Assembly (NCBI GenBank): GCA_016181585.1
Contig: JACOYX010000017.1
Location: 8,317 to 72,316 of the forward strand
Length of the DNA: 64,000 bases
Source of the DNA: Candidatus Sungiibacteriota bacterium
Lineage (GTDB): Bacteria > Patescibacteriota > Minisyncoccia > Sungbacterales > HO2-52-23
Reading direction: 5' to 3'
A model generated the notes under the pieces. That model did no database searches and was not told the DNA's origin. It saw only the letters and a program-made list of their open reading frames with translations. The translations under genes were made by a program, and so were the position numbers. Each line of letters starts with the position of its first letter. The stretch's first letter is position 1. Shown here piece after piece: positions 4,769 through 59,875 of this stretch.

Positions 4769-5005
4769 ATGCTGACATTCTTGGAATACTGGTATTGCGC
4801 TGGATTAATCTTAGTTGTAATTGGCTGCTTAAATTGCTTATACAGGGGAAAGCCGCTATTCGTGCCGCCCAAAGGATGCGAAAGAGGATGGAAAAAATTT
4901 ATTGCAGGTGTTATAGCATTCACTATTATCCCGCTCATTGGACCAGTTTTCGTATTCGTTTTTTGTGCGGCTTGGTTAGTGAAATTTTTTTACAGGGAGG
5001 TCTAA
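4769..5005 (+). CDS. Small two-TM membrane protein (78 aa)
   Basis: SD GAGGAGGAATAATG; two hydrophobic helices; cysteine pairs (CLNC, GCERG). Confidence 0.5.
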   Translation: MLTFLEYWYCAGLILVVIGCLNCLYRGKPLFVPPKGCERGWKKFIAGVIAFTIIPLIGPVFVFVFCAAWLVKFFYREV

Positions 5006-5184
5006 TGGCTCACTTCAAAAACGTGCACCGGATGTGAAAAGACCATTGAGGAGTGCCCATGCGAATCGGATAATAAAATGCTTATCCTCATGGTATGCGC
5101 AAAAAAAGGACTGCATCTTAAAAAACCTCTGAAAATTATAGATTATCTTCCGCCGGAATTGGAGACGATTATATCTCCAAACTA

Positions 5185-5212
5185 AAAAGACGTACGAAAG
5201 TACGTTTTTTAT
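5185..5212 (+). terminator. Rho-independent terminator (agacgtac-gaaa-gtacgt + T6)
   Basis: Palindromic stem followed by tttttt; closes the small-gene cassette. Confidence 0.6.
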
Positions 5213-5241
5213 AATATTCTTAAATCACAAGCGTTTGCGTA

Positions 5242-5399
5242 GGGAAACCCGCGGATTTTTCGCGGGGTTACGAAGTTGTGCAAGCATGGTTCCCGATATT
5301 CATTATTTTCTCTATAAATAAAAATCGGGATTGCACAACTTCGACCTTTTGTTTGCTCACTGGAGCAAACAAAAAAAGCGAAAAATCTGTGGGTTTCCC
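5242..5399. repeat. Structured repeat family F, copy 1: nested inverted repeats around core catggttcccgatattcatt...aaatcgggattg
   Basis: Outer IR gggaaaccc.c.gatttttcg; second IR gaagttgtgcaa/ttgcacaacttc; inner stem tcccgat/atcggga; side hairpin tttgctcactggagcaaa. Homologous copies at 45823-45957 and 7526-7589 with compensatory changes. Confidence 0.7.
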
Positions 5400-5416: not shown

Positions 5417-6331
5417 TCAAACTATCCTCATCATCTTTTTCAACTCCCCAATCCCGTCTTCAAATTTCACATTTGGCGCCCACCCGATAAGATTTTTTGC
5501 GCGAGAGTTGTCCGCAAGCGTAGCTTTCACCTCTCCTCGTCTCACTTCGGCAAATTTCCATTCACCGCCTATTAATTGCGCCACATCAAGAACACTGTAA
5601 TTTTTCCCCGTACCTACATTAATAATTTCTCCTTTTCCGACACGCGGCGATCCCATCGCGAGAATATTGGCACGCGCGATATCGGTAACGTGCGTAAAGT
5701 CCCGGCGCTGGGTGCCATCGGGAACCACAGTCATAATATCTCCCTTTTTTCGCTGTTCCAAAAATATGCCAATCACAGTCGCATATGGCCCATCAGATGC
5801 TGTAGTCTGCCGTGGTCCGTATACATTAAAATAGCGCAAACACACCGTTTCAAGTCCATAAAATTGTGATGCCATCTCGCAATATTGTTCTCCCACTCGC
5901 TTCTGGATCGCATAGGGAATAACCGGTTCCGGCCTCATATCTTCCTTGAGTGGCATAGGATTATTGGGTCCATACGCCGACGAAGAAGCGGAATAGACAA
6001 CCCGCTTCACCCCGGTGTCACGCGCGGCAAGAAGCACATTTAGCGTGCCGGTGATATTGATATCATTCGTCAACTGCGGCTCCAGTATGGAGTATTGCAT
6101 CCGCGGCTGTGCGGCAGTATGGAAAATCCCCGCGGCCCCCTGAAAAATCGGCTTTAATTTTTCAAAATCGCGTATATCCGCTTCGTGCAATACCGCTTTG
6201 GAATTCACCCGTTCGCGCTTTCCTGTTAAGAAAATATCAACAATATGCGCCTCATCGCCGCGCTCCAAAAGTTGATCCACAATATGCGATCCGATAAATC
6301 CCGCGCCTCCGGTTACAATATATTTCGCCAT
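5417..6331 (-). CDS. NAD-dependent epimerase/dehydratase (SDR; UDP-sugar 4-epimerase-like, WbpP/GalE-type)
   Basis: TGGAGFIGSH Rossmann motif; YxxxK region (SSSAYGP); 304 aa. Confidence 0.8.
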   Translation of the reverse strand: MAKYIVTGGAGFIGSHIVDQLLERGDEAHIVDIFLTGKRERVNSKAVLHEADIRDFEKLKPIFQGAAGIFHTAAQPRMQYSILEPQLTNDINITGTLNVLLAARDTGVKRVVYSASSSAYGPNNPMPLKEDMRPEPVIPYAIQKRVGEQYCEMASQFYGLETVCLRYFNVYGPRQTTASDGPYATVIGIFLEQRKKGDIMTVVPDGTQRRDFTHVTDIARANILAMGSPRVGKGEIINVGTGKNYSVLDVAQLIGGEWKFAEVRRGEVKATLADNSRAKNLIGWAPNVKFEDGIGELKKMMRIV

Positions 6332-6342
6332 TTTAATAATTA

Positions 6343-6488
6343 GACCTACTGCGTAAAGATTTTCGTAACGAAATTTCTTAATTTAGAGACAAAATCGTTG
6401 AATAAATTTCGAGGCCTATCGGCTTAGATAAGTCAAGTTTGGCCGAAATTAAGAAATTGCAGTAGAAGTATCTTTACGCAGTAGGTCT
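6343..6488. repeat. Palindromic repeat family A, copy 1 (terminal IR agacctactgcgtaaag...ctttacgcagtaggtct)
   Basis: 17-bp terminal inverted repeats enclosing about 110 bp of imperfectly palindromic sequence; near-identical to the copy at 51264-51426. Confidence 0.75.
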
Positions 6489-6489
6489 A

Positions 6490-7413
6490 TTATTTATTAT
6501 TTTTCTTTTTTTGAGACTCAACTTTCCTCTTAACCCATTCGTGGTCGTGTACACTCACATCCTCAAGCGTCAGCCCTTGGCTCAAAAGCAACGCCTCATT
6601 GAACGCGCGATCCTGTTTCAAAAGATTTGCCGCATCGCTCATGCAATTTATCTCAAGCGAAGCGATCAATCCGTCAAGATCTTTGGGTAAGCAAAACCCG
6701 CCGAAACCTTTGTACCCTCCATGCGCCACATCGAGATGCGAATCGCCAATGCGAAAATCCGCCGCCAGGCCGCACCGCACGTTTTCGTAATCCCCCCCGA
6801 GGCTTGCCGCAAGCATCGCCAAAGAATTTGCAAAATTTATTTTCCGCGCAAAGTGAATATTACCCCCGTATTTTATAATCTCCGCTTCCGTTGCGGTTAT
6901 TTTCAACGAGCGATAGGTGTTGAGGCCTCCTGGCGACATAAAAGGCGCGCGCGGAAGCAGAGAGAGAGCGAGATAAGCCGCATCAATGCTTTGATTGGTA
7001 AACCCAACGATCTGGCGATCGGGACGGATAAAATCCTCCCATGCACGCCGCTCCGTTAAAAATTCAGGATTGAAGAGAAACTTGTGATGCGGATATTCCT
7101 CCTGAAATTTTTCAGTAGTTCCCGGCGGAACAGTGGATTTTATCACGATAATTTTCTCTCCCTTAATTTTTGAGATCGCGTTCTTTACAAAATTAATATT
7201 AGCCGAACCGTCTTCCGAACGAGGTGTCGGCACTGAAATAAAAACAATATCAGCATTGCTCACACGGTCGTTAAAGCCTTTTTTAGGGTCAATGTCATAC
7301 AAAAAAAGATCCTTGCCGCGCTTGTACTCCTGATACTCTTCAAAATACCGCGCAAGCGGACCTCCCACCATGCCAATCCCCACAATGCCGATTTTAATCT
7401 TTTTATTTTTCAT
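6490..7413 (-). CDS. UDP-glucose/GDP-mannose dehydrogenase family protein, short form lacking the C-terminal UDP-binding domain
   Basis: GIVGIGMVGG NAD-binding motif; catalytic GFGGFCLPKD; only 307 aa; stop lies 2 nt from the family-A repeat. Confidence 0.6.
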   Translation of the reverse strand: MKNKKIKIGIVGIGMVGGPLARYFEEYQEYKRGKDLFLYDIDPKKGFNDRVSNADIVFISVPTPRSEDGSANINFVKNAISKIKGEKIIVIKSTVPPGTTEKFQEEYPHHKFLFNPEFLTERRAWEDFIRPDRQIVGFTNQSIDAAYLALSLLPRAPFMSPGGLNTYRSLKITATEAEIIKYGGNIHFARKINFANSLAMLAASLGGDYENVRCGLAADFRIGDSHLDVAHGGYKGFGGFCLPKDLDGLIASLEINCMSDAANLLKQDRAFNEALLLSQGLTLEDVSVHDHEWVKRKVESQKKKNNK

Positions 7414-11144: not shown

Positions 11145-12260
11145 ATGAAAAAACTCCTTATCGTCGCCGACTCCCCTGGTTCCGCAGAATTCATTGCGCC
11201 CGTCATTCCCTTGCTTCAGAAAAAAACAAAGATCGTGGTCGTGACAGTCAACACTTCTACCGAAGCGCCGTATACGATATTAAAAAAATATAAGCCATTA
11301 CGATGCGATCATGAAAAAGATGCGGAGGCATTGTTTCGAAAAATAAAACCCGATATTCTGCTCGCGGGGACAAGCTCGCTCATCCCCGGCCCATTTGTCA
11401 ATAACTGCTTCATCCGCCTCATGCACCGAGAGCAAAAACCGGTTTTAGTCTTTCAAGACTATTGGGCAAACCACCGCTGGCCGCAAAACAAAGAAACTCT
11501 GCATTTGTGGAACGCCGTATTTGTGCCTGACGAACTTGCAAAAAAGTTTTTGCAGGAAGATGCTTTTTCGGGAAATATCATAACCACCGGCAATCCTGCG
11601 TTTGATAAATTCACAACTGCCAATCCCGCCGCGATTCGCAATGCATTGCGCAAGGAGCTCAACATACGCGGATATGAGTTTGTCATACTCTACGCCGGCA
11701 CCGGCACGCCGCAAGCATGGCAGGAAGATGAAGCAACATTTCGTTTTCTCGCTAATGCATTGCAGGAATTTTTTGCGAACACGCCGAATATCGTTTTTAT
11801 TCCCCGCTCTCACCCGCGCGATGAAGAAAAAAATCGGTATCAAAAACTGGCACCTCGTTTGCGGATGTATAACCCAGATCACGGAAAAAACATCTATTCT
11901 ACCGACAATCTACTCTTAATGGCAGATTGTATAATCAGCATGTATTCAACCGCGCTTCTGCACGCCTGTTTTCTCAAAATACCGGCCATAAGCATTCTTC
12001 TTCCCGATGCGGGCCGCGCGCGCCTTCGAAAAATCAATCTCGATAATTTTCCTCCCAATACCGTTGGCGCGACTATTGGTGTTTACAAAGAATCTACCAA
12101 GGACCTTGTCGCCGCATTCGACGCCGTTAAAAATGACCCGCACTATCGCCAAAAGATAACCAACGCGCAAACGCAATTTTTCTCTTTGGCACAGAACAAA
12201 AAATCAGCCACGGAAACTGCGGCCGATGCGATCACTTCTTTTATTAGACCTGCTGCGTAA
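11145..12260 (+). CDS. Hypothetical GT-B-fold-like protein, paralogue of 9983-10975
   Basis: 371 aa; similar architecture (..LLMADCIISMYSTALLHACFLKIPAI..); stop codon lies within the family-A repeat. Confidence 0.4.
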   Translation: MKKLLIVADSPGSAEFIAPVIPLLQKKTKIVVVTVNTSTEAPYTILKKYKPLRCDHEKDAEALFRKIKPDILLAGTSSLIPGPFVNNCFIRLMHREQKPVLVFQDYWANHRWPQNKETLHLWNAVFVPDELAKKFLQEDAFSGNIITTGNPAFDKFTTANPAAIRNALRKELNIRGYEFVILYAGTGTPQAWQEDEATFRFLANALQEFFANTPNIVFIPRSHPRDEEKNRYQKLAPRLRMYNPDHGKNIYSTDNLLLMADCIISMYSTALLHACFLKIPAISILLPDAGRARLRKINLDNFPPNTVGATIGVYKESTKDLVAAFDAVKNDPHYRQKITNAQTQFFSLAQNKKSATETAADAITSFIRPAA

Positions 12261-12360
12261 AAATTTTTCTACTGCAATTTCAATTCGCACCAAAATCGCT
12301 TCAGCAATTTTATCTCAAAATTCTGAAATTTCGCTATGAAAATCTTTACGCAGTAGGTCT
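12246..12360. repeat. Palindromic repeat family A, copy 2
   Basis: agacctgctgcgtaaaaa ... ctttacgcagtaggtct; supplies stop codons for both flanking genes. Confidence 0.7.
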
Positions 12361-12745
12361 ATTTCTTAATTCCTGTTTTTTTCTCAAGTTCAGCAATTCG
12401 TGATTCAAGTTTAGTATATTCGTCGTAGGTAATAAGACGCTTTTTACCCCGAGGATCGGTCCACTCGTTAATTTTTCTATGGATAAAGCGAAGTTCTTCA
12501 GAGTGATCTTCAAGAATTTCTTCTATAGTACCAATTCTTTGCTCTACCGCACCCATGCGAACTTTAAGATCCTCAATATCAGACTCCAGTTTCGAGAAAT
12601 GCTTGTCCACTCGATCAAACCGCGCATCTATTGCCTCAAACCGCGCATCAACCGCGTCAAAGCCAGCTTTTACCATCACAGCCAATTCATCGATTGTAAC
12701 GCCCTTCTTTTTGGCCATAGTGCCATTATAATCAATCCATCCCAT
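12359..12745 (-). CDS. Hypothetical coiled-coil protein
   Basis: About 128 aa; repeated ARFxAIDARFDRVD heptad-like segments; the ORF-track start is TTG, so I used the first ATG. Confidence 0.45.
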   Translation of the reverse strand: MGWIDYNGTMAKKKGVTIDELAVMVKAGFDAVDARFEAIDARFDRVDKHFSKLESDIEDLKVRMGAVEQRIGTIEEILEDHSEELRFIHRKINEWTDPRGKKRLITYDEYTKLESRIAELEKKTGIKK

Positions 12746-12750
12746 ACTCG

Positions 12751-13860
12751 TCAAATCAGCAAACCTTCAACGATAGGGTCGTACTTTTTAAATGGCTTTG
12801 AGAGTTTTTTTCCTATCACATATTCATATCGCTCCGAAGGCATCCCTCCAGCAAATTTCTGAGGGCGCATGGCATAGATCATATCCGCCGTCAAAATAAC
12901 GCCGGCCGCAATATCTTGTCCTGCCATAAGCGATTTTCGAAAATAAGGACGAAATATCGCCTCTCCATCTTGAAGAACCTTCCCTTCTTTTCCCATGCCT
13001 TTCTGGACAATTTCTTTAGCGAGATATTCTTCTTTTTTTGCGGGATTATTTTCAATATCGCGAATACCTTTGGTAAGAGTCTTGAATTCCTCCGGCGTCA
13101 TGGATACTTTGTGGTCTGCGCCCCATAAATCCCGTGCAAACGAAAAGTGCTTTTCAATCACTCGCGCTCCCAGCGCCACTGCGGCAAGCGCGGAATCAAT
13201 ACCGATCGAATGATCAGAAAATCCGGTTGGCACATGATAACGATCGGCTAAATACTTAATTGATTTTAAATAAAGCTCATCCGGCGGACAGGGGTATTTT
13301 GATACGCAATGCAATAATATTATTTCCGAGTTTCTTCGTTTCAGAAAGTCAATTGCGCTATCAATCTCTTCTTCCGTCGACATACCGGAGGAAATAATAA
13401 TAGGTTTTTTGGTGGAAGCCAGATAATCAAGCATTACAAAATCCAAGAGATCACCGGAACCAACTTTCCATAATTCAACACCAAGTTGCGAAAGTTTTTG
13501 CGCCGCGCCGCGTGACATTGGTGTAGAAAAAAACGTAATGCCAATTTCATCGCAGTACGTTTTTAATGGCCGCCAAAATTCTTCAGGTGGCGTCGCCGCA
13601 GTATTTCGAGAAACCCAAGAATAGCGGTCGGAACCCCTGAAGTGAGGCGAGACAACGTTGATATTCAACTGCTCGTCCTCCACATTGTGCGTCTGAAATT
13701 TCACCGCATCCGCTCCAGCATCTTTTGCAGCTCTAACTAATTTTTTCGCATTTTCCAGATATTCAAAAACCGGACACTCTTCTTCGGTTTGTATAAAATT
13801 CTTGCCCATTTCGGCAATGATGAAAACTTTATTGTTTAGTTGTTGAGGAAAAGAAAGCAT
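12751..13860 (-). CDS. NeuB-family nonulosonic acid synthase (N-acetylneuraminate/legionaminate/pseudaminate synthase-like) with C-terminal SAF domain
   Basis: 369 aa; NeuB TIM-barrel motifs (FIIAEMGKNF, ..KFQTH.., GFSDHS.G); C-terminal SAF-like region. Confidence 0.8.
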   Translation of the reverse strand: MLSFPQQLNNKVFIIAEMGKNFIQTEEECPVFEYLENAKKLVRAAKDAGADAVKFQTHNVEDEQLNINVVSPHFRGSDRYSWVSRNTAATPPEEFWRPLKTYCDEIGITFFSTPMSRGAAQKLSQLGVELWKVGSGDLLDFVMLDYLASTKKPIIISSGMSTEEEIDSAIDFLKRRNSEIILLHCVSKYPCPPDELYLKSIKYLADRYHVPTGFSDHSIGIDSALAAVALGARVIEKHFSFARDLWGADHKVSMTPEEFKTLTKGIRDIENNPAKKEEYLAKEIVQKGMGKEGKVLQDGEAIFRPYFRKSLMAGQDIAAGVILTADMIYAMRPQKFAGGMPSERYEYVIGKKLSKPFKKYDPIVEGLLI

Positions 13861-15582: not shown

Positions 15583-16299
15583 TTATCTATTGTGGCGGAG
15601 TAGCGCTTTTTCCGCCTCTTCCCAATCTTCCATGCTATCAATATTCACGCTATATTTTTGCTCCATTGGATACGCCCGCACATCATCACCATAAAAAGTT
15701 GGTTCCGAACGAAATAAAAGTTCGGTCTTAAAAAGATATATGGCGCCGTTTCGCGTATATGTTTTTCCGAGCTCCTGCCTTCGCTTCACGATTTGCGAAA
15801 ACGGCTCGCCCGTAAAAATTTGCAAATGATTTTCCGCGTCAATTAAAAACTGCCAATGCGGATTAAAATGTTGGGGAATTTCCGAGACGCTCACGATCGA
15901 ATCTGCATTAATTTTTTCCATAAGCTCCGCCGACTCGCGAATATGAAAATCCTGCCGCAGGGGACATGTGGGCTGTAAAATCATCACATAATCCGATACA
16001 AAATTTTCATTGTCGCGAAGCCAGTTTACCGCGTGTTGTAGTACCGGTAAGTGCGGCGTGGTATCTTGCGCAAGTTCCGCCGGACGCATGAAAGGCACTT
16101 CGGCGCCGCACTGCTTTGCAACATTGGCAATTTCTCTATCATCCGTTGAAAGAATCAAGCGTGAAATAACGCCGGATTCTTTGGCGGCTTTGATGGTATA
16201 AGCAATGAGGGGTTTTCCCGCAAGCTCTTTTACGTTTTTCCGCGGAATACCTTTTGACCCTCCGCGAGCAGTGATGATACCGAGAATAGTTTTTGGCAT
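15583..16299 (-). CDS. Acylneuraminate cytidylyltransferase family (CMP-nonulosonic acid synthetase, NeuA/KdsB-type)
   Basis: ILGIITARGGSKGIPRKN signature; 238 aa. Confidence 0.8.
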   Translation of the reverse strand: MPKTILGIITARGGSKGIPRKNVKELAGKPLIAYTIKAAKESGVISRLILSTDDREIANVAKQCGAEVPFMRPAELAQDTTPHLPVLQHAVNWLRDNENFVSDYVMILQPTCPLRQDFHIRESAELMEKINADSIVSVSEIPQHFNPHWQFLIDAENHLQIFTGEPFSQIVKRRQELGKTYTRNGAIYLFKTELLFRSEPTFYGDDVRAYPMEQKYSVNIDSMEDWEEAEKALLRHNR

Positions 16300-24012: not shown

Positions 24013-24687
24013 TTATATTTCTTTCCACTTCCTCACTTCCTCATTTGCCTTTTTATATCTCTCCTCGGTTCCCGCATCGATCCAATATCCTTTATGCAAA
24101 AAAACATTCAGTTCGCCGCTCTCGGCAAGCCGCGGAAAAATCTCTTTTTCGATCATAAATTCTTCCGGTGTGTTTTCAAACACAGTCGGCGACAAAAGAT
24201 AAAATCCGCAATTCACATACCCCGTAATTTTTTCCTGCGGTTTTTCGAGAAACTCTTTTATCTTGCCATTATCAATGTTTAAAAGCCCAAAATCCCGCGC
24301 ATCGCTCACCTCCACACACATGATAGTATTGGGCAAAGAGCGCATCATCGCGGAAATATCCACATCAGTTAAACCATCTCCATTGAGCACCAAAAATGGT
24401 TCTTTCAAATCACGACTCGCGAATTTAATTCCCCCGCCCGTACCCAAAGGCCTCGGTTCCACCACATACTCAAATTTTCCCGGCCACTTCGCCTCACAAA
24501 ATGCGATAACCTGATCTGCCTTATGATACAAACTCAAGCGAATGTCGAAGATGCCATGCTTTTGCAATAAATTTACTTGATGCTCCAAAATCGTAACTCC
24601 ACCGACTTCAGCAAGCGGCTTTGGCCTCTCTCCCGTAATTTTTGCAAGCCGGGTGCCGAAACCACCGGCTAAAATAATTGCTTTCAT
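24013..24687 (-). CDS. Sugar-phosphate nucleotidyltransferase (NTP_transferase family)
   Basis: MKAIILAGGFGTRL signature; 224 aa; the start codon lies inside the left 22-bp TIR of the MITE-like element. Confidence 0.75.
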   Translation of the reverse strand: MKAIILAGGFGTRLAKITGERPKPLAEVGGVTILEHQVNLLQKHGIFDIRLSLYHKADQVIAFCEAKWPGKFEYVVEPRPLGTGGGIKFASRDLKEPFLVLNGDGLTDVDISAMMRSLPNTIMCVEVSDARDFGLLNIDNGKIKEFLEKPQEKITGYVNCGFYLLSPTVFENTPEEFMIEKEIFPRLAESGELNVFLHKGYWIDAGTEERYKKANEEVRKWKEI

Positions 24688-25142
24688 CCCACACATAACT
24701 TACACAAGACTATATTGAAGACACTCTTTAAGTCTCCGTAAACCCTGCGCATTTAATTGGTCTGTTGCCGAATAGCACTTTGACTACAATTGCATAAATT
24801 CGGTCAAATTTTTCAAAAAATTTCTTGGCTTATCTTCCAGATAGGCCGCAAAATTTTTTGAAAAATTTGCCTCGAATTTCTGCAACTTCGCGACGTAGGC
24901 TATTCGGCAACAGACCCTTAATTTTAAAGATTGTTCTCTCTTATAAGCATCATCTTTTTACACATAAGCTTCATAGTACACAAGTCGCCATGGCAAATAC
25001 TTTTTTGTGTACGACGACTTGCCACTGTTATGCTGATATAGTCTTCTACGAAGATCACCTGTACCCTACGTACAAACCATCAACAGTTTCAGATTTGAGC
25101 AAATACACATAATACATGTTTGTGTAAGTTATGTGTGGGATG
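24685..25142. mobile_element. MITE-like element: 458 bp bounded by 22-bp perfect terminal inverted repeats (catcccacacataacttacaca / tgtgtaagttatgtgtgggatg); non-coding interior built from mosaic repeat modules
   Basis: TIRs at 24685-24706 and 25121-25142. Interior carries module D (ggtctgttgccgaatagc ... gctattcggcaacagacc) and module C (cttggcttatcttccagataggccgcaaaa), both shared with 40596-40775, 42021-42477 and 57660-57893. The TIRs supply the start codon of 24013-24687 and the last 5 codons plus stop of 25129-25857. Confidence 0.6.
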
Positions 25143-25857
25143 AATTACTTTTTCTCAATAACAACTCCGCAATCTCAAAATCAATCGCGTGATCAATATC
25201 CACCGTCGGCCTTTTAAGAAAATACGGCAAAACCTTACCACCAATGACTGAATTTTTCTCCATAATTGTACTATAACGCACCACACCGATATCTGCAGTG
25301 GTCTGATACACTTTGGGCAATGACTGACGAGGTGCGGTATGCCAATCTTTCATGCCAGGCATATCTGAAACAAAGGGGTCAATAAAATCTCCCGCTATCT
25401 TCCACATTTTAAAGGGTGGCTTCGATGGCTCTTCTATCGAACGCACACTATCGGCTTCCGGAAATTTTTCCAAAAGCTCAATGGACTCATCAATCTCCTC
25501 CGCGGTACGCAAAGGCCCGGTCGGCCGCAAATGCACTAGAATATCCGGCTGATATTTTTCATGATCCTTCAGCCACTCCAGTGCGTGTAAAAAAACCGGC
25601 GTATCCGGCGTCAAATCTTCAGCTAAATTTGCGGGACGCAAAAAAGGCACCTCGACGCCATATTTTCTTGCGATGTCGGCAATCTCTTCATTGTCGGTAG
25701 ACACAATCACGCGATCAATATATTTTGATTTTTTTGCCACACCAATGCTCCACGCAAGCAACGGTTTACCCGCAAGTAATTGTATGTTTTTTTTCGGTAT
25801 CCCCTTTGATCCCCCCCTCGCAGGGATGAGAGCTAATATCTTTTTTCTATTTATCAT
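25129..25857 (-). CDS. Acylneuraminate cytidylyltransferase family (second CMP-nonulosonic acid synthetase)
   Basis: ILALIPARGGSKGIPKKN signature; start moved to MINRKK; last 5 codons lie in the TIR. Confidence 0.75.
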   Translation of the reverse strand: MINRKKILALIPARGGSKGIPKKNIQLLAGKPLLAWSIGVAKKSKYIDRVIVSTDNEEIADIARKYGVEVPFLRPANLAEDLTPDTPVFLHALEWLKDHEKYQPDILVHLRPTGPLRTAEEIDESIELLEKFPEADSVRSIEEPSKPPFKMWKIAGDFIDPFVSDMPGMKDWHTAPRQSLPKVYQTTADIGVVRYSTIMEKNSVIGGKVLPYFLKRPTVDIDHAIDFEIAELLLRKSNSSHT

Positions 25858-40595: not shown

Positions 40596-40775
40596 TTCTA
40601 GCAATATAAAAATGAAAAATGACGGTTAAAATTTAAAATTTCGCATTTTACATTGTCATTTTTCATTTTTATATTAGACCCACTGATTAAAGATAAATCT
40701 ACTGCAATTTCATAATTTCGGCCAAAATCGTCTCAAAATTTATTGGCTTACCTTACAGGTAGGCCGCAAATTTTT
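40596..40775. repeat. Mosaic intergenic repeat: 21-bp perfect IR (aatataaaaatgaaaaatgac / gtcatttttcatttttatatt) + family-A-like arm (agacccactgattaaagat) + module C
   Basis: Module B (gtcatttttcattttt) recurs at 54370-54390 and 55545-55565; module C (ttggcttaccttacaggtaggccgcaaatttttgaa) recurs at 24860-24890, 42225-42255 and 57795-57835 (reverse). Confidence 0.65.
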
Positions 40776-40778
40776 GAA

Positions 40779-42020
40779 CTACTTTGGTATGACCCTTTCC
40801 CCTCCCACTGGCATGATAAATTTGCCGCCTTTGGCGATAAAATCCTTTTCCTTTTGTAAAATGATATCCTTGTACGGCCACGCGAGCAAAAAATAATAAT
40901 CAGGAGGATTTTGCCGCGCCCATGAGATATCTACAATAGGAATATGCGTGCCCGGAGTAAATTTGCCGATTTTTGAAGGAAGCGTTTCAGTCGCAAAATC
41001 AAGCACCGACCTGCCGATACCAAAATAATTCAGGAGAGTATTTCCGCGCGCCGGAGCGCCATAGGCCGCAATGCGTTTCCCTTCCCGCTTCAGCCGAAGC
41101 AGTGTCCCTTTTATGTCCTCCCGCAGAGCCTCAACGCTTTTTGCCAATTTTTGATACGAAGAAAAGTTATCAAAACCGCGCATCCTCTCAAGCGCGGAAT
41201 ACCGCCCGACACTTTCTTCGATAGCATACGTGCCCGGACGCGCCGCATAGTAGCGAAGCGAATTCCCTTGCACAGGGAAAGGCTTTACGTCAAAAAGTTC
41301 AAGTCCATACTGCGTCAAAAGCTTATTTAGCGGTTTCACCGCCAAGTAAGACATATGCTCATGATAAACAGAATCAAACGCCAACTGGTCAAACATATCC
41401 CCGAGATAGGGCGCCTCGAACACAAAAACACCTTGTGGAGAAAGAAGCGACACAACACCTTTCATAAGATCATGATGATCATCTATATGTGCCACGACAT
41501 TATTGCCGATAATTACATCGGCCTGTCCGAATTCGTCTGCAATTTTCTGTGCCGTCGCTTCACCGAAAAATTCCGCACGCGTCATAACTCCGCGCTCGTT
41601 TGCCATCGCCGCAACATTTTCCGCAGGATCAACCCCCAGTACCTGCACGCCGTATTGTTTGATTAAATAAAGCAAATGCCCGTCGTTTGATCCGATTTCT
41701 ATAACAAATTTTCCCGTATCAGGCAAAAACCGCGCCCGCATTTCCTCCGCATAGCCCGTGAAATGCAAAGAGCTGGGAATACCGGAAGAAAGATATACAT
41801 AGTCATGCACAAAGAGAAGCCGCGGATCAACCACATGGCTTAATTGCACCAGATTGCAGTTTTCACAAAACACGAGACCTAAAGGAAAACGTTTTTCCGA
41901 CGCAAACGATGCAGTATCGCGAAGCAGTGAATTTGCCAGTGGCTGATCCCCCAAATCAAAAAAATGTCTGAGACTTTCCGACTCGCACATTCTACATTTT
42001 ATTTGTTGATAAACATCCAC
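40779..42020 (-). CDS. SAM-dependent sugar C-methyltransferase (TcaB9/TylC3-like) with N-terminal Zn-ribbon
   Basis: CRMCES...CENC zinc ribbon; methyltransferase domain (VIEIGSNDGHLL); C-methyltransferase C-terminal domain; 413 aa. Confidence 0.7.
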   Translation of the reverse strand: MDVYQQIKCRMCESESLRHFFDLGDQPLANSLLRDTASFASEKRFPLGLVFCENCNLVQLSHVVDPRLLFVHDYVYLSSGIPSSLHFTGYAEEMRARFLPDTGKFVIEIGSNDGHLLYLIKQYGVQVLGVDPAENVAAMANERGVMTRAEFFGEATAQKIADEFGQADVIIGNNVVAHIDDHHDLMKGVVSLLSPQGVFVFEAPYLGDMFDQLAFDSVYHEHMSYLAVKPLNKLLTQYGLELFDVKPFPVQGNSLRYYAARPGTYAIEESVGRYSALERMRGFDNFSSYQKLAKSVEALREDIKGTLLRLKREGKRIAAYGAPARGNTLLNYFGIGRSVLDFATETLPSKIGKFTPGTHIPIVDISWARQNPPDYYFLLAWPYKDIILQKEKDFIAKGGKFIMPVGGERVIPK

Positions 42021-42477
42021 GTTGATAATTTAAAAGATATCTTTACGTATAGGTCTATTTAATGGGTTTGTTGCCGAATATCGCTTATGAGCTACGATTG
42101 CATAAATTCGGGTAAATCGCATCGCGATTTACGGGAAATTTAGCGAAGCCGGGTATTCCCGTGCGAAGCGTAAAATTTCCCCGGCTTTTGCTCAAGGAAG
42201 CAAAAGAATTTTTCAAAAAAATTCTTGGCTTATCTCAGCATATAGGCCTTAAACGGTCGATCAGTCCCAGACCGTTCGTACCGAACGGCATGGACCAAGT
42301 CAGGTTTTAGACCGCGTAGTTTGTGTGAGTATTTGCCTCGTCCAGACATGTCGGGATCGCTTCAAAGGCTATTCGGCAACAGTCCCTTAAAGCAGATTGA
42401 GCCTTTTTATACTAAAAAGAATTCAAAATAAAGGCAAATAGAAAAACCCTTCTGAAAGGGTTTTTCTCCAGAAACAG
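42021..42477. repeat. 457-bp non-coding spacer built from repeat modules A-like, D, C and E
   Basis: tctttacgtataggtct; gttgccgaata...ctattcggcaacag; cttggcttatctcagcatataggcc; ggccttaaacggtcgatcagtcccagaccgttcgtaccgaacgg...caggttttagacc (reverse complement of 57700-57790). Confidence 0.6.
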
Positions 42478-43557
42478 TTAACCCCACATAACGTCATCGT
42501 GCTTAATCACCGTATCGAGCGGAATATCTACTTTAGTTTTTTTGCCGATTACTTTTTCAATCATGTTAGGCTTCAAACCGTATCCAGGGCTTTTGCAGGT
42601 AAGCATGGATGCGCTGATTACTGTGCCCGCCGGAATTGCGGCGGCGGAAACTATACTTTTTGAATGCTTCTCCCGCGTCTTCTTTTCTTCTTCAGTAAAT
42701 TTCTTTACCGGCTCGCCAAATGCTTTTTCAATTCTGCGTGTATCCCTCACCATTGAGTTGAATGTCTCCGGTTCGATGCTTACCGTCGCATGATCCGGCC
42801 CAGGAAGAGAACGATCAAGCGTGAAGTGGCGCTCCACCGAAACCGCACCCAGTGTCACCGCCGCAAGCGTCGGCAAGGTATCCTGCTCATGACCGGAATA
42901 GCCGATCGGGAGCGGAGCATAGCGTTCCTTCAAAAGCGGGATTGTTTTTAAATTTATTTTTTCATCCGGAGAAGGATACACCGAAACACAATGCTTGATA
43001 ATCAACTGATCATTGTGTTTTAAAATAGCGTCTACCGCTTCATCAAGCTCTTCGATCGTGCACATACCCGTGGAAAGGAACATCGGTTTTCCTTTTTTTG
43101 CCACATATTCAAGCAGAGGAATATTGGTTACGTCAAAAGACGCAACTTTGTATACCGGAACATTTATTTCCTCCAAAAAATCAGTGCTTTTTTTATCAAA
43201 GGGAGTTGCAAAAAATATGACTCCGAGAGAATCTGACAACGCTTTGAGTTTGGCAAATTCCTCCTGATTGAGCTCAAGCGCTTGGCGGTATTCGCCGTAT
43301 GTTTTCCCGAAAATCTGGTCTTTATTTTGCGGCTTATCCACGAGCTCCTTGGCAAAGGTTTCGTTAATGAACCGCTTCTGCAATTTCACCGCATCCGCAC
43401 CGGCTTTCACCGCTTCCTCGATAGAACGCTTTGCAAGGTAATAATCGCCGTTATGGTTATTGCCGATTTCCGCGATAAAAAACACGGACTCTCCTTCTCC
43501 CACATATTTATTGCCAACCTTGACACGATTCGGGAGATTCTTTTTTGCTAAAGTCAT
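42478..43557 (-). CDS. NeuB-family nonulosonic acid synthase with C-terminal SAF domain, third paralogue
   Basis: FFIAEIGNNHNGD, KLQK and GYSGHE motifs; 359 aa. Confidence 0.8.
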   Translation of the reverse strand: MTLAKKNLPNRVKVGNKYVGEGESVFFIAEIGNNHNGDYYLAKRSIEEAVKAGADAVKLQKRFINETFAKELVDKPQNKDQIFGKTYGEYRQALELNQEEFAKLKALSDSLGVIFFATPFDKKSTDFLEEINVPVYKVASFDVTNIPLLEYVAKKGKPMFLSTGMCTIEELDEAVDAILKHNDQLIIKHCVSVYPSPDEKINLKTIPLLKERYAPLPIGYSGHEQDTLPTLAAVTLGAVSVERHFTLDRSLPGPDHATVSIEPETFNSMVRDTRRIEKAFGEPVKKFTEEEKKTREKHSKSIVSAAAIPAGTVISASMLTCKSPGYGLKPNMIEKVIGKKTKVDIPLDTVIKHDDVMWG

Positions 43558-51097: not shown

Positions 51098-51263
51098 AAC
51101 TTTTTATTTTTAATTATGAGGCATGACCTCATAAATGAGAAAACTCCATAATAAACATATAACAAGCGAAAAGAGCTTTACGTTTCGACCATGCTGTCTT
51201 TAAGAAACTGTCTGAAAAGTACTCTTTCGGTAAAAACAAACCGTCTTTTCGATAAAAATCATT

Positions 51264-51426
51264 AGACCTACTGCGTAAAGATTTTCGTAACGAAATTTCT
51301 TAATTTAGAGACAAAATCGTTGAATAAATTTCGAGGCCTATCGGGCTTAGATAAGTCAAGAAATTTTGAAGCGATTTTGGCCTAAATTAAGAAATTGCAG
51401 TAGAAGTATCTTTACGCAGTAGGTCT
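51264..51426. repeat. Palindromic repeat family A, copy 3 (first 95 nt identical to copy 1 at 6343)
   Basis: agacctactgcgtaaagattttcgtaacgaaatttcttaatttagagacaaaatcgttgaataaatttcgaggcctatcgg...ctttacgcagtaggtct. Confidence 0.75.
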
Positions 51427-51454
51427 ATTGATTTTAACTTCGAAAGGTACTTTT

Positions 51455-54472: not shown

Positions 54473-55444
54473 TTAGCTAAATCCTCCATCCCAAATATAT
54501 TCTTTTTCTTTTACTTTGAATGAAGAAGTTTTTTCTACGCCCTTTTTCATCCTCAAAAGCACTCCCGCGCACTTCCAATAGAGCTTAGCCGGCCAATACA
54601 AAAAAGGATGTTCCTTGAGAAATTTATTTATGCGGAATTTATAATACCACATGCGCGGAACGGAACGCTTCATCACCGTATAAATAAGATTCCGGCTCTT
54701 TTTATGCCACCGCTCATACGCTTCAGGAGACATCGGAGACTGAATATGGTGATACATCTTCACTCTGCAAAACTTTACATTGGCGCCGTTTTTAATAAAT
54801 GCCAGCACATACTCCATATCACCCTCCCATGTTGACATAAGCCCGCCCAACGCATGTGATTTGCGCCGCACAAAATGTCCAAAAGAAGACGCCGCGCGAT
54901 AGCGAAAAACATCAGTAATATCTTTTCCATAATTTACCCCTGGAGGAAGATAAGAAGTAACAATCTTTCCCGCCTTAGCAGTGTTCTCCCCTGAAAGATA
55001 TGCGGCAGTATCTGTGCCATATATTTCTTTTGTTCCGCCGCATACCAGCATATCCACCTCCGGATGCTGTTCCATTACCTCCGCCGCCTTTTCCATCGCG
55101 TCGCGATAATAGATATCGTCGTCCAAAAGCAGTTTGATATATTTCCCGCTCGAGAGCAGGATTCCTTTATTGCACGCCTCGTTCGCACAACGGTCTTTCT
55201 CGGAAATGAAAATATCCACAATATCCGCGTATTTTTGCACCACTTTTTTTGTGCCGTCTTCCGACGCGCCGTCAACGACAATCAATTCATCTTGCGGCCC
55301 CACAAGTTCCCTTGCACGCGTTAAAAAATCATCCAGAATGGCGGCGCGGTTTTTGGTAATTACGATATATGAAATCCTTTTGGTAGAATGCGCATCAAAG
55401 GAAGTGTTTGGAAATATTTTTTTTTGTGTATTAATTTCTGACAT
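54473..55444 (-). CDS. GT2 glycosyltransferase; paralogue of 58997-59875
   Basis: SYIVITKNRA; VVDGASEDGT; DDD. Confidence 0.7.
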   Translation of the reverse strand: MSEINTQKKIFPNTSFDAHSTKRISYIVITKNRAAILDDFLTRARELVGPQDELIVVDGASEDGTKKVVQKYADIVDIFISEKDRCANEACNKGILLSSGKYIKLLLDDDIYYRDAMEKAAEVMEQHPEVDMLVCGGTKEIYGTDTAAYLSGENTAKAGKIVTSYLPPGVNYGKDITDVFRYRAASSFGHFVRRKSHALGGLMSTWEGDMEYVLAFIKNGANVKFCRVKMYHHIQSPMSPEAYERWHKKSRNLIYTVMKRSVPRMWYYKFRINKFLKEHPFLYWPAKLYWKCAGVLLRMKKGVEKTSSFKVKEKEYIWDGGFS

Positions 55445-56594: not shown

Positions 56595-57650
56595 TTAAAA
56601 CGGTCCGCGAAATTTATGTTCCCAGCTATTGGGCGCTTCTTTTGGCAAAACGCAAGGCTTCAGCTCAAGTTTTTTTTCAACGCTTCGCACGATAGACAGC
56701 GAATCTGGATAAAATACATTTTCGAGCTGGCGTGTCGTAGGACAGGGAGTATGGGGAAAACCAATGCGTACGACCGGCGACTGCAGTTTTTTAAAGCATT
56801 TTTCCTGCACCAATGCGGCTACTTCCGCGCTGAACCCGCAAAAAAGCCAATCATAATCGGCAACGATGCAATGGCCTGTTTTCTCCACCGATTGAAGAAT
56901 AATTTTTTCGTCCAAGGGATAAATTGTCCGCGGATCAATAATTTCCACTTGTATACCGTGCGCCGCTTCCAGAATTTCCGCCGCTTTAAACGCCTCCACA
57001 TTCATCCATGAGGTGGCGACAATGGTGATATCTTTTCCCTTGCGGAATATTTTCCCTTTTCCCAATGGCACTTCGTAGGGCTCCGCAGGAACTTCGCCTT
57101 CAACCCAATAGAGCTGGCGATGTTCTAAAACAATCACCGGATTTTCGTCGCGGATAGCCGCAATTAAAATCCCTTTGATGTCATAAGGAGTTACCGGCAT
57201 CACCACCTTCAAACCGGGAATATGGGCAAAGATCGATTGCATGCTTTTGCTATGCTGGAATCCTTGTCCCCATCCGCGCCCGATAATAGACCGTATAACC
57301 AACGGCACTTTCAGTTTTCCTCCCGATCCGTAATGATACGAGGAAACCATATTGCCGAGCTGATTCATGGCAAGGAGCAAAAAATCACTGCGTATATGGA
57401 TATTGACCGGACGCAATCCGGCAATCGCCGCACCGAGTCCGACGCCCATAAGCGCCTCTTCGGAAAGCGGCGTGCTAAACATCCGTTCACTGCCGAATTG
57501 CTCCAAAATCCCAAACGTACTACCCGAAGTCCGCTTGTGATCCGCAACATCAAGTCCATATAAAAACACAGAAGAATCGCGCTCCATTTCTTGCTGCAGC
57601 GCTTCACCAATGGCGGTGCTGTAGGAAATAATTCTATTTTTCTTCATCAT
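56595..57650 (-). CDS. TPP-dependent 2-oxoacid dehydrogenase E1 component, beta subunit-like
   Basis: 351 aa; transketolase-like Pyr and C-terminal domains. Confidence 0.7.
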   Translation of the reverse strand: MMKKNRIISYSTAIGEALQQEMERDSSVFLYGLDVADHKRTSGSTFGILEQFGSERMFSTPLSEEALMGVGLGAAIAGLRPVNIHIRSDFLLLAMNQLGNMVSSYHYGSGGKLKVPLVIRSIIGRGWGQGFQHSKSMQSIFAHIPGLKVVMPVTPYDIKGILIAAIRDENPVIVLEHRQLYWVEGEVPAEPYEVPLGKGKIFRKGKDITIVATSWMNVEAFKAAEILEAAHGIQVEIIDPRTIYPLDEKIILQSVEKTGHCIVADYDWLFCGFSAEVAALVQEKCFKKLQSPVVRIGFPHTPCPTTRQLENVFYPDSLSIVRSVEKKLELKPCVLPKEAPNSWEHKFRGPF

Positions 57651-57659
57651 GTGGAAATT

Positions 57660-57893
57660 AGATCTGCTGATTAAAGATTTTCGTTACGATCCCGACATAT
57701 CGGGACAGAATTTCGAGACAAAATCGCTTAACAAATTTTGCGGTCTAAAACCTGACCTGCTCCGTACCGTTCGGTATGAACGGTCTGGGACGTTTCGGCC
57801 GTTTAAGGCCTATCTGTAAGGTAAGCCAAAAAGTTTTGAAGTGATTTTGGAGCGAATTGAAATTGCAGCAGAATTACCTTTACGCAGTAGGTC
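57660..57893. repeat. Palindromic repeat family A, copy 4 (long mosaic variant carrying modules E and C)
   Basis: agatctgctgattaaag...ctttacgcagtaggtca; internal hairpin tcccgacatatcgggac; modules E and C in reverse orientation relative to 42021-42477. Confidence 0.65.
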
Positions 57894-57909
57894 AATTAAA
57901 TAAAATATA

Positions 57910-58996: not shown

Positions 58997-59875
58997 TCAC
59001 CAGCTAAGTCCTCCATCCCACGATTCGACCACATTTTTTGGAACAGTTTTCCAGATAAAAGAATGCAATGATCCGAACCATGATTGATGTTCTTTCAGAA
59101 ATCTCCACATACAATAACGCAAATAAAAGCGGTACGAACAATACTCCCGTACAACTCGCCGGTCAGCTCCAGATCCTTCTCTTTTTACCGAAACGCCATG
59201 TTGATAAATAATATGGTGATACAAACGCACACGGCAAAATTTTACTATTCCGCCTTTTTTAATAAAAGCCGCGACACATGCAAGATCGGTTAAATGCGTA
59301 AGATATTGCTCACACGGCATCAATTGGCCCATGCGGGCAAATGATTTGCGGCGGGTAAAAAGCCCCAATCCGGCGCCCGCTTTATAGCGAAACGCATCTT
59401 CCGGATGTTTGCCATAGGGAATTCCTGATGGAATATATTTACTACCCATCTTGCGGCCGTCTTTTTCTTTGGTACCGCCGCATACGAGAAGATCAATCTC
59501 CGGATTTTCATCCATAACCTTCACCACATGATCAATACCTTCTTTGAAAAATTTATCATCATCAGTGAGGAGCTGCGTATATCTTCCGCGCGCAAAAACA
59601 ATACCTTTATTAATAGCATTGGGTCCCGATTCATCCGGTTCGGAAATAAATATATCAATCACATCTTTATAGCGCTCCGCCACATCCCTTGTGCTATCCG
59701 TCGAACCACCATCCACTACGATAATTTCATCATCCGGCCCTTTGAGAGAGCGATACCGCTCTAATGCGCTCGCGAGATATTCGGCGCGATTTTTAGTGGG
59801 AAACACAAAAGAAACACGCTTCTCACAAAGCGACTCAAAAGTAGGATCATTGGCTTCCCCTTGTCTTGATTCCAT
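58997..59875 (-). CDS. GT2 glycosyltransferase; paralogue of 54473-55444
   Basis: SFVFPTKNRA; VVDGGSTDST; DDD. Confidence 0.7.
   Translation of the reverse strand: MESRQGEANDPTFESLCEKRVSFVFPTKNRAEYLASALERYRSLKGPDDEIIVVDGGSTDSTRDVAERYKDVIDIFISEPDESGPNAINKGIVFARGRYTQLLTDDDKFFKEGIDHVVKVMDENPEIDLLVCGGTKEKDGRKMGSKYIPSGIPYGKHPEDAFRYKAGAGLGLFTRRKSFARMGQLMPCEQYLTHLTDLACVAAFIKKGGIVKFCRVRLYHHIIYQHGVSVKREGSGADRRVVREYCSYRFYLRYCMWRFLKEHQSWFGSLHSFIWKTVPKNVVESWDGGLSW

Follow-up and report, generated by a model that had tools for sequence, protein, structure and literature searches.

The locus

We examined an interval between two genes in a 64,000-nt stretch of DNA from a Candidatus Sungiibacteriota bacterium (contig JACOYX010000017.1, positions 8,317 to 72,316), which we call the window. 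The organism belongs to the candidate phyla radiation (CPR), or Patescibacteria. A first-pass annotation, made from the letters alone, described the interval as a 458-bp non-coding insertion resembling a miniature inverted-repeat transposable element (MITE), with 22-bp perfect terminal inverted repeats (TIRs). We argue that it is probably a degraded copy of a selfish GIY-YIG nuclease cassette, bounded by inverted repeats (IRs) and targeted to start codons, that is widespread in CPR/Patescibacteria. Every gene around the element is on the minus strand, and the arms of the repeat are named in gene orientation. The features are these, with ORF for open reading frame:

25129 to 25857, minus strand: upstream host gene, acylneuraminate cytidylyltransferase-family CTP_transf_3 (NeuA-like), Pfam E=9.9e-23
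25120 to 25144, minus strand: left (upstream) arm, with the family core CCCACACATAACTTACAC(A) at 25139-25121
24700 to 25117, minus strand: GIY-YIG nuclease pseudogene, start ATG at 25117, found by tblastn with intact homologues and by Pfam
24918 to 24923, no strand: TTAATT direct repeat, copy 2, flanking the nested palindrome
24759 to 24917, no strand: nested palindromic repeat (the first-pass annotation's "module C"), inserted in the GIY-YIG ORF
24753 to 24758, no strand: TTAATT direct repeat, copy 1, beside the nested palindrome; at least TTAA is duplicated
24683 to 24707, minus strand: right (downstream) arm, with the core (T)GTGTAAGTTATGTGTGGG at 24706-24688
24013 to 24687, minus strand: downstream host gene, nucleotidyltransferase (NTP_transferase), Pfam E=6.6e-30

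The 22-mer CATCCCACACATAACTTACACA does lie at 24685-24706 (+) and 25121-25142 (-), as the first-pass annotation had it, and the perfect IR is really 25 nt, TTCATCCCACACATAACTTACACAA, at 24683-24707 and 25120-25144. The arms also overlap the neighbouring genes as described, with the NeuA-like stop (25131-25129) and the NTP_transferase ATG (24687-24685) inside them. There is no spacer at all between the NeuA-like gene and the left arm. That gene ends AAT TCA TCC CAC ACA TAA (...SNSSHT*), and its last three codons and stop, TCC CAC ACA TAA (SHT*), are supplied by the arm. The right arm holds the stop codon TAA of the GIY-YIG ORF (24702-24700), and directly after its core, as the final triplet of the arm, comes the ATG of the NTP_transferase, a protein that starts MKAIILAGG. 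It was suggested that the 22-mer might be repeated elsewhere. Across the 64-kb window at up to 3 mismatches only the two arms were found, 0 of 100 shuffles gave a match, and the 19-mer core of the arm is likewise confined to a single locus.

The NeuA-like protein is 100% identical to an NCBI protein from a metagenome-assembled genome (MAG) of "Candidatus Sungbacteria bacterium", and its close relatives all come from Parcubacteria/CPR metagenomes. The window has a second CTP_transf_3 (NeuA-like) gene at 15583-16299, about 62% identical to the one at 25129-25857 over 408 nt and in the same minus-strand sugar-biosynthesis cluster. Other diverged paralogue pairs in the window are 54743-55300 with 59210-59740 and 13049-13472 with 42725-43154.

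The nuclease pseudogene

The interval was called non-coding, and this does not hold. tblastn places residues 1-18 of the nuclease at 25117-25064 (frame -1) and residues 20-67 at 25062-24919 (frame -2), with E=2e-19, and the repaired translation matches Pfam GIY-YIG at E=2.7e-16. There are three lesions: a 2-nt deletion/frameshift near 25063, an in-frame TAA at 24960-24958 and a 165-bp insertion. The C-terminal 18 residues, ...QGLRRLKECLQYSLV*, resume at about 24752, past the inner palindrome. Excising 165 nt restores ...REQSLKLNAQGLRRLKECLQYSLV* in frame and brings the unit to 287 nt, which is the family norm. The excised 165 nt are a 158-nt IR-bounded palindrome (24759-24916), one extra base and one copy of TTAATT. 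With the other copy kept, the ORF reads AAA TTA AAT GCG (KLNA). Since homologues give the interrupted reading frame, the boundaries of the nested palindrome and the TTAATT duplication are precisely defined.

The window copy is a decayed version of an ORF-bearing, autonomous-type cassette with both arms still perfect. It is an inert relic. No sigma-70-like promoter was found within the interval, and the effect of this copy today goes no further than the gene termini and the long, highly structured spacer between the two cistrons.

The cassette family

The 19-nt core was found at 7 loci in species-representative genomes, all of them Patescibacteria MAGs (Saccharibacteria, Paceibacterota, Sungiibacteriota and "Patescibacteria group"), and at 30 further loci in metagenomes. 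In total there are 35 distinct cassette sites. Loci are labelled L001 and upwards below. At every one of them the core occurs as an outward-facing pair, CCCACACATAACTTACAC ... GTGTAAGTTATGTGTGGG. Viral contigs gave 0 matches to the core, and a phage origin is rejected on that ground. A general CPR promoter or leader motif is rejected too, since the 19-mer is always an inverted pair around a GIY-YIG ORF or its remnants; it is missing from the other 54 gene starts of the window. Most units were ascertained by an exact match to one arm, including 9 of the 15 long ones.

The IR core of the family is 18-20 nt and an intact cassette is about 290 bp. Units fall into length classes of 58, 101-127, about 195 and 287-301 bp. 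The 287-301 bp units enclose an intact 85-codon GIY-YIG ORF, and the 58-196 bp units are deletion derivatives with no ORF. All 15 long units carry the ORF between the arms in the same position and orientation. Its ATG is a few nt inside the left arm and its TAA is inside the right arm (GTG TAA GTT ATG TGT GGG). The association holds from the other direction as well: the arms are present, with 0-2 substitutions each, at all 6 loci that were found from the protein and not from an arm. A 195-bp unit is a long unit minus one clean internal deletion between ACATAA microhomologies, and the 118-bp units retain patches of the ORF (KSLYVGC, SLKLH, NSL.V*). At one host gene, an exonuclease, the unit is long, medium or short depending on the genome.

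Several MAGs have two or three units on the contigs seen (L004a, L004b and L007; L005 and L006; two in L033; two in L034). Some flanks are chimeric. L036 (3903-4097) has the left flank of L027 (12321-12515) joined to the right flank and gene of L031 (1829-2122), and the left flank of L046 (607-900) is that of L049 (422-715) with a different downstream gene. Because of these chimeric flanks we conclude that cassette copies recombine with each other, which implies that recombination between dispersed copies rearranges gene order. L004 also has a bacterial RNase P class A RNA at 4972-5349 (-), 116.7 bits, and two cassette units lie about 1.3 kb away. Inside this RNA gene the arm motif is weakly matched at 5007-5025 (4 mismatches), probably by chance.

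The encoded protein

The protein of the long units has 85 residues, MY.VYLLQSLKN.SLY(V/I)GCT.DL.KR..EHN...S..TKKY.PWKL.Y.E.Y....DA..RE..LKLHAQGLRRLKERL..SL.V. It matches Pfam GIY-YIG at E=6.6e-16 over residues 1-66 and has no second domain. The catalytic Tyr5, Tyr16, Arg26, His30 and Glu62 are invariant and are kept in seven intact 85-aa ORFs. There are at least 5268 related database proteins at E<=1e-5, and at 50% clustering 501 clusters have E<=1e-10. The best 120 of the related database proteins are all about 85 aa, and among these every named source is a Patescibacteria lineage.

A profile search of the PDB gave UPF0213 BH0048 (E=9.5e-10), Slx1 and UPF0213 EF2693; an NCBIfam search gave nothing above the cut-off. 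The AlphaFold (AF2) model has a pLDDT of 84.9 and shows a compact fold with a C-terminal helix. In fold it comes closest to BH0048 and the Slx1 nuclease domain (TMq 0.67, rmsd 2.0 Å, 38% identity), then to I-TevI. Sequence similarity, fold similarity and the catalytic Tyr, Tyr, Arg, His and Glu all place the protein among the Slx1/UPF0213-like nucleases. Slx1 is a structure-selective nuclease that acts on branched and stem-loop DNA. By analogy, a preference of the cassette nuclease for the base of a hairpin or cruciform is plausible.

Probable insertion at start codons

The right arm runs straight into the ATG of a long ORF in about 32 of 36 units. These host genes are of unrelated kinds: ClpB, FKBP isomerase, a DnaQ-like exonuclease, AI-2E permease, MazG-like, PilM, PNPase, DUF167, a holin-like protein and, in the window, NTP-transferase. 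There are at least 20 such unrelated genes with a cassette upstream, and ATGAA is their sole common feature. The nuclease ORF and the host gene are co-directional in 14/14 units where the ORF is present and the host ATG can be assigned.

Outside the arms there is a 5-nt direct repeat with the consensus ATGAA, typically in the form ATGAA-T[CCC...GGG]ATGAA. The left and right flanks of a site agree more than they should if each simply followed the consensus. Over 29 distinct sites their identity is 117, and permuted pairings give 107.5 +/- 1.8, with 0 of 20000 reaching 117. Even flanks that depart from the consensus are pairwise equal (GTCAA/GTCAA, ATGAG/ATGAG, ATGGA/ATGGA). We take these covarying flanks to mark a 5-bp duplication of start-codon targets, of which the right copy would stay as the host start. 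The NTP_transferase start in the window, ATGAAA, is the preferred flank of the family. In L001, a related genome with a NeuA 80% identical, the order NeuB-NeuA-NTP_transferase is kept, the spacer is 109 bp long and has no arms, and the NTP-transferase starts ATGAAG. This junction in L001 is orthologous and unoccupied. The 35 sites, the covarying flanks and this element-free junction together bear out the first-pass idea of an inserted element of a dispersed family.

Altered gene ends

That idea came with two corollaries. The first, that the NeuA tail is derived from the element, holds for SHT*: none of 28 NeuA orthologues ends this way, and their tails are variable after ...AELL(L/F)(K/R)K. 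Unrelated genes also end in an arm, namely a hypothetical gene in L008 (...ENESHT*) and an ECF-sigma-like ORF in L033 (...INESHT*). If the L033 flanks are joined, the predicted tail before insertion is ...INEKEN*. These comparisons support a new C-terminus for the NeuA-like gene, which the insertion would have given it. The second corollary, that the insertion created new termini on both sides, survives for this C-terminus and fails for the downstream ATG, which at other sites is the host's own start codon, duplicated along with the rest of the ATGAA flank. The MCG-extended ORF called by the ORF finder (24696) is an artefact of the arm that recurs at other sites.

Many database proteins of 230-370 aa (P0256, P0261, P0262, P0264 and others, up to 612 aa in P0321) have the 85-aa GIY-YIG module at their extreme N-terminus. 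These may be read-through fusions with the host gene after loss of the stop in the arm, or they may be gene-calling artefacts.

Pairing of the arms

The two arms behave as a constrained pair. Over the 15 long units mean arm identity is 95.7%, as against 66.8% for the interior. Arm positions are paired in 95.4% of cells (35 units), and slid partner columns pair in 26-57%. Changes are double-sided in 9 of 20 pairs; the shuffled mean is 2.0 and 0 of 500 shuffles reached 9. Compensated substitutions are seen in L039 (CATACC / GGTATG), L043 (CCCCC / GGGGG), L044 and L050 (ACGC / GCGT) and again L050 (CACAAC / GTTGTG). Minimum-free-energy folds of the window unit and of L002 are both closed by the arm stem. 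The remaining mismatches, read on the sense strand, comprise 13 T·G or G·T cells and 2 A·C or C·A cells. This bias suggests that the arm stem would form on the sense strand, in the mRNA or in the DNA itself.

A known structured RNA or tRNA is ruled out, with no Rfam family at gathering score and zero tRNAs. In the window the palindrome gave sub-threshold generic hairpin (miRNA-precursor) matches only, and the units in L002-L008 gave no Rfam matches, not even of that sub-threshold kind.

A possible mechanism

We infer both the mobility of the cassette and the role of its nuclease. The cassette would be, or would once have been, mobile. It would insert at ATGAA start codons, and the 5-bp target duplication would regenerate the host start codon. 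It sits inside operons and, judged by the window copy, has no recognisable promoter; it would use the host gene's signals for transcription and initiation. The left ATG copy keeps the host's upstream signals, for example TATAAT...GAGGGA-ATGAAT in L044. Most long units have an 8-codon mini-ORF that starts at this ATG, M(N/S/D)PTHNLH* (for example MNPTHNLH*), and that stops 2-10 nt before the nuclease ATG or is fused in frame with the nuclease ORF (L008, L046). The nuclease ORF in turn ends 12 nt ahead of the host ATG. Such a layout suggests sequential termination and re-initiation, so that the host gene would still be expressed and the element would need no signals of its own. An SD-like (Shine-Dalgarno) motif lies within 18 nt upstream of only about 12 of 55 ORF starts in the window, and most leaders are A/T-rich. 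This suggests that translation initiation in the host is largely SD-independent.

The arms would pair on the sense strand, in single-stranded DNA (ssDNA) or mRNA, and the resulting structure would be recognised by the structure-selective nuclease. The nuclease could nick the sense-strand hairpin, much as the Ssn enzymes discussed below nick beside their NTS hairpins, and host functions could complete the movement. Copies with no ORF may persist through trans-mobilisation, or since their arms now form the start context of a host gene. Taken as a whole this describes a mobile element that is minimal and autonomous, about 290 bp in length and encoding nothing but an 85-aa nuclease, with ATGAA insertion, 5-bp duplication, host signals used through the mini-ORF and re-initiation, and sense-strand hairpin recognition. 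We offer this full mechanism tentatively, as a possibility that falls short of being probable.

A number of points weigh against the start-codon cassette. The window copy itself has no flanking direct repeat. The first-pass annotation had proposed looking for one, and in gene orientation the flanks are ATTCAT on the left and ATGAAA on the right; the covarying 5-nt repeat belongs to the family elsewhere. This left flank is the reverse complement of the usual ATGAAT. It extends the IR and removes the direct repeat, and it is because of ATTCAT in place of ATGAAT that the window IR is 25 nt long, the unit proper being 24688-25139. The same left flank occurs in L032 (9942-10059). Its cause could be a secondary deletion, arm-to-arm conversion or recombination between copies. 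As a separate observation, both outer flanks of L032 begin with ATG.

Flank repeats are imperfect at about a third of the sites, some of which are accounted for by the chimeric flanks of L036 and L046. No close occupied/empty pair with a single ATGAA was obtained: L001 is distant, and for DUF167 the relatives are the occupied L057 and only one empty locus, L058, which is distant too. Ascertainment by exact arms inflates the apparent conservation of the arms, and the 6 units ascertained by protein are unbiased but few. Sequences from one genome or lineage are not independent. The wobble bias of 13 to 2 is weaker than it looks, as the events are not all independent either. To our knowledge GIY-YIG enzymes are hydrolytic nucleases with no strand-transfer activity. 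Finally, transposition, cleavage and excision were not observed.

Alternative explanations

One can imagine that the nuclease is a free-standing homing endonuclease, which cuts cassette-free alleles and is copied in by recombinational repair, with the arms as remnants or determinants of the recognition site. The GIY-YIG fold is common to I-TevI and the Seg enzymes of phage T4, and those too are small selfish genes that sit between host genes without disrupting them. The same host gene is occupied in different genomes, both for the exonuclease (L004, L031, L036) and for ClpB (L007, L024), and CPR bacteria are thought to be naturally competent. Even so we consider this reading unlikely, in which the cassette would spread between genomes by homing or transformation and not by transposition to new genes. 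At least 20 unrelated host genes sharing nothing but ATGAA do not look like the single homologous target locus of a homing enzyme. A covarying 5-nt flanking duplication is not expected either, and homing genes have no terminal IRs or target duplications. Homing enzymes have long DNA-binding domains, whereas this protein is 85 aa and single-domain, with no DNA-binding domain of that kind.

A classical non-autonomous MITE is the explanation closest to the first-pass annotation. Here the 22-bp TIRs would be bound by the transposase of an insertion sequence (IS) from elsewhere, and the GIY-YIG similarity would be incidental or a passenger. The perfect terminal IRs, the 58-127 bp ORF-less members with 5-nt flanking repeats and the presence of several copies within single MAGs all look like MITEs. 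The Neisseria Correia/nemis elements are bacterial MITEs whose TIRs fold in mRNA. Coxiella QMITE1/2 are MITEs that overlap gene ends (PMC5896051). Like both groups, the cassettes are small IR-bounded units at gene ends, with altered C-termini, co-transcription and TIR hairpins that could be processed in RNA, and it is the ORF-less members of 58-196 bp that resemble them most closely. Yet those elements derive from conventional ISs, use TA or variable sites, have no nuclease ORF and show no sequence similarity to the cassette. Membership of QMITE1/QMITE2 (the CbsR13/CbsR16 loci) in particular is rejected, as the host is a Candidatus Sungbacteria and the arm matches are all from Patescibacteria. 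Coxiella had come into consideration through the GC content, the many palindromes and a cluster resembling sialic-acid/LPS genes, and the identity of the NeuA-like protein with a Candidatus Sungbacteria protein decided against it. What makes a MITE very unlikely is the ORF. The short forms keep remnants of it and grade into the long form through clean deletions, and in every long form its position and orientation are constant, the start and stop being anchored to the arms. A pseudogene is still recognisable in the window copy, and no transposase gene was seen adjoining any unit. The name MITE-like is therefore apt for the terminal IRs (25 nt here) and for the dispersed IR-bounded family, and it breaks down at the coding content.

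It is also conceivable that the unit is a host intercistronic RNA structure with no DNA mobility, either an RNase III site or a device for translational coupling, in which the downstream start stays masked until ribosomes have translated the upstream ORF. The sense-strand bias of the compensatory and G·U-tolerant changes fits this. So do the stem in the minimum-free-energy folds and the co-orientation of the unit with a downstream gene whose ATG it abuts; with SD motifs at 12 of 55 window genes, accessibility of the start site may matter. Such a structure leaves unexplained the nuclease ORF and the flanking direct repeats, why arms in different phyla and ahead of unrelated genes are identical, and why orthologous junctions lack the unit. 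It is compatible with a mobile cassette as a secondary property and fails as the sole explanation, in which role we find it highly improbable. A chance or local inverted duplication of the NTP-transferase leader, with no wider significance, would fit an arm confined to one locus within the 64-kb window, and it is refuted for practical purposes by the 0 of 100 shuffles and by the 18-19-mer pair at 35 distinct sites in other genomes.

The nested palindrome

If anything at this locus is to be called a MITE, the 159-bp nested palindrome fits best. Its terminal IRs are perfect and 18 nt long, GGTCTGTTGCCGAATAGC / GCTATTCGGCAACAGACC, and there is an inner IR of 31 nt. A long hairpin is predicted for the strand, with z=-13.7 over the whole unit. 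The interval was said to be made of two modules, C and D, seen elsewhere. This holds only for the inner palindrome (24751-24918), which has relatives in the window; the rest (24919-25120, "module D") has none. There are at least 6 relatives, at 6323-6500, 12236-12382, 40603-40787, 42057-42390, 51247-51445 and 57635-57904. They form a family of palindromic intergenic repeats of 115-200 nt with two terminal subtypes; the copy at 42057-42390 is composite and about 330 nt.

The near-perfect palindromes at 6323-6500, 12236-12382, 40603-40787, 51247-51445 and 57635-57904 have the termini TAGACCTACTGCGTAAAG...CTTTACGCAGTAGGTCTA and sit between polysaccharide-cluster genes. Their inner part is common with the nested palindrome and their ends differ. 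The ends of the second subtype (TAGACC...GGTCTA) are ambiguous, and a TA duplication is only possible. Another 458-bp intergenic gap, 42020-42478, is composite. It has a partial TAGACC-type end at 42037-42058 and an element of the nested-palindrome subtype, GGTTTGTTGCC...GGCAACAGTCC, with TTAA on both sides. That element contains additional GC-rich hairpin inserts in common with 57687-57837. The centre of the nested palindrome, 24826-24848 (+), has an intrinsic-terminator-like hairpin followed by a T-run, antisense to the genes; in its mirror image on the gene strand the T-run is slightly displaced.

Related systems

Both REP/BIME-RAYT and IS200/IS605 have a single gene between inverted short repeats that also occur dispersed with no gene. 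The cassette shares with them the repeat-bracketed gene, and the parallel extends to hairpin recognition on one strand and orientation-specific insertion. The chemistry differs. RAYT and TnpA are HUH/Y1 enzymes that use covalent intermediates and make no target duplication, whereas the cassette has a hydrolytic GIY-YIG enzyme and a 5-nt duplication.

The closest comparison is Ssn (Chenal et al. 2025, Nat Commun, PMC11893778). Ssn proteins are single-domain GIY-YIG ssDNA nucleases of about 94 aa, and their genes are flanked by cognate NTS/SRM hairpin repeats. The authors call this architecture IS-like and compare it with REP/RAYT (PMC11893778). In both Ssn and the cassette a single-domain GIY-YIG gene for about 90 aa lies between cognate inverted repeats, and gene-less copies of the repeat occur near genes. 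The strand-specific (ssDNA) recognition of Ssn parallels the sense-strand wobble bias of the cassette, and the outer stem bases are similar (TCCC...GGGA). There are several differences. Each Ssn flank is a complete hairpin of 20-50 nt, whereas the cassette arms are the two halves of one stem enclosing the gene. Compared by description, Ssn is CDD cd10448, and the nearest solved relatives of the cassette protein are UPF0213 and Slx1; Slx1 is listed as a family separate from Ssn (PMC11893778). Start-codon association, flanking duplication and CPR members are not reported for Ssn, and the role shown for it is restriction of transforming ssDNA, not mobility (PMC11893778).

Full-text literature searches found no description of such cassettes in CPR, though their coverage was incomplete and an earlier description is possible. 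The family is apparently undescribed.

Implications

For annotation, the lesson is that "intergenic repeats" of this type conceal pseudogenes, and that N-terminal extensions starting MCG... and C-termini ending ...SHT are artefacts or additions derived from the element. The 19-nt stem is a defined candidate substrate for the nuclease.

If the full mechanism offered above holds, the cassette would be a GIY-YIG counterpart of REP/RAYT and IS200/IS605 and among the smallest self-encoding mobile elements known, and its ORF-less derivatives would act as MITEs and as substrates for recombination by which gene order is reshuffled. A cassette of the kind we argue for would extend the Ssn concept, in which a tiny GIY-YIG nuclease is paired with a repeat of its own, to another GIY-YIG clade and another repeat geometry. 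The genomes of CPR bacteria are tiny and gene-dense, and they are usually described as poor in mobile DNA. A start-codon cassette that spares essential genes (ClpB, PNPase, PilM, sigma factors, sugar-nucleotide enzymes) would account for the persistence of a selfish element in such genomes. It would also explain the thousands of orphan 85-aa "GIY-YIG nuclease family proteins" annotated in CPR, and the remodelling of some of their gene termini and gene orders.

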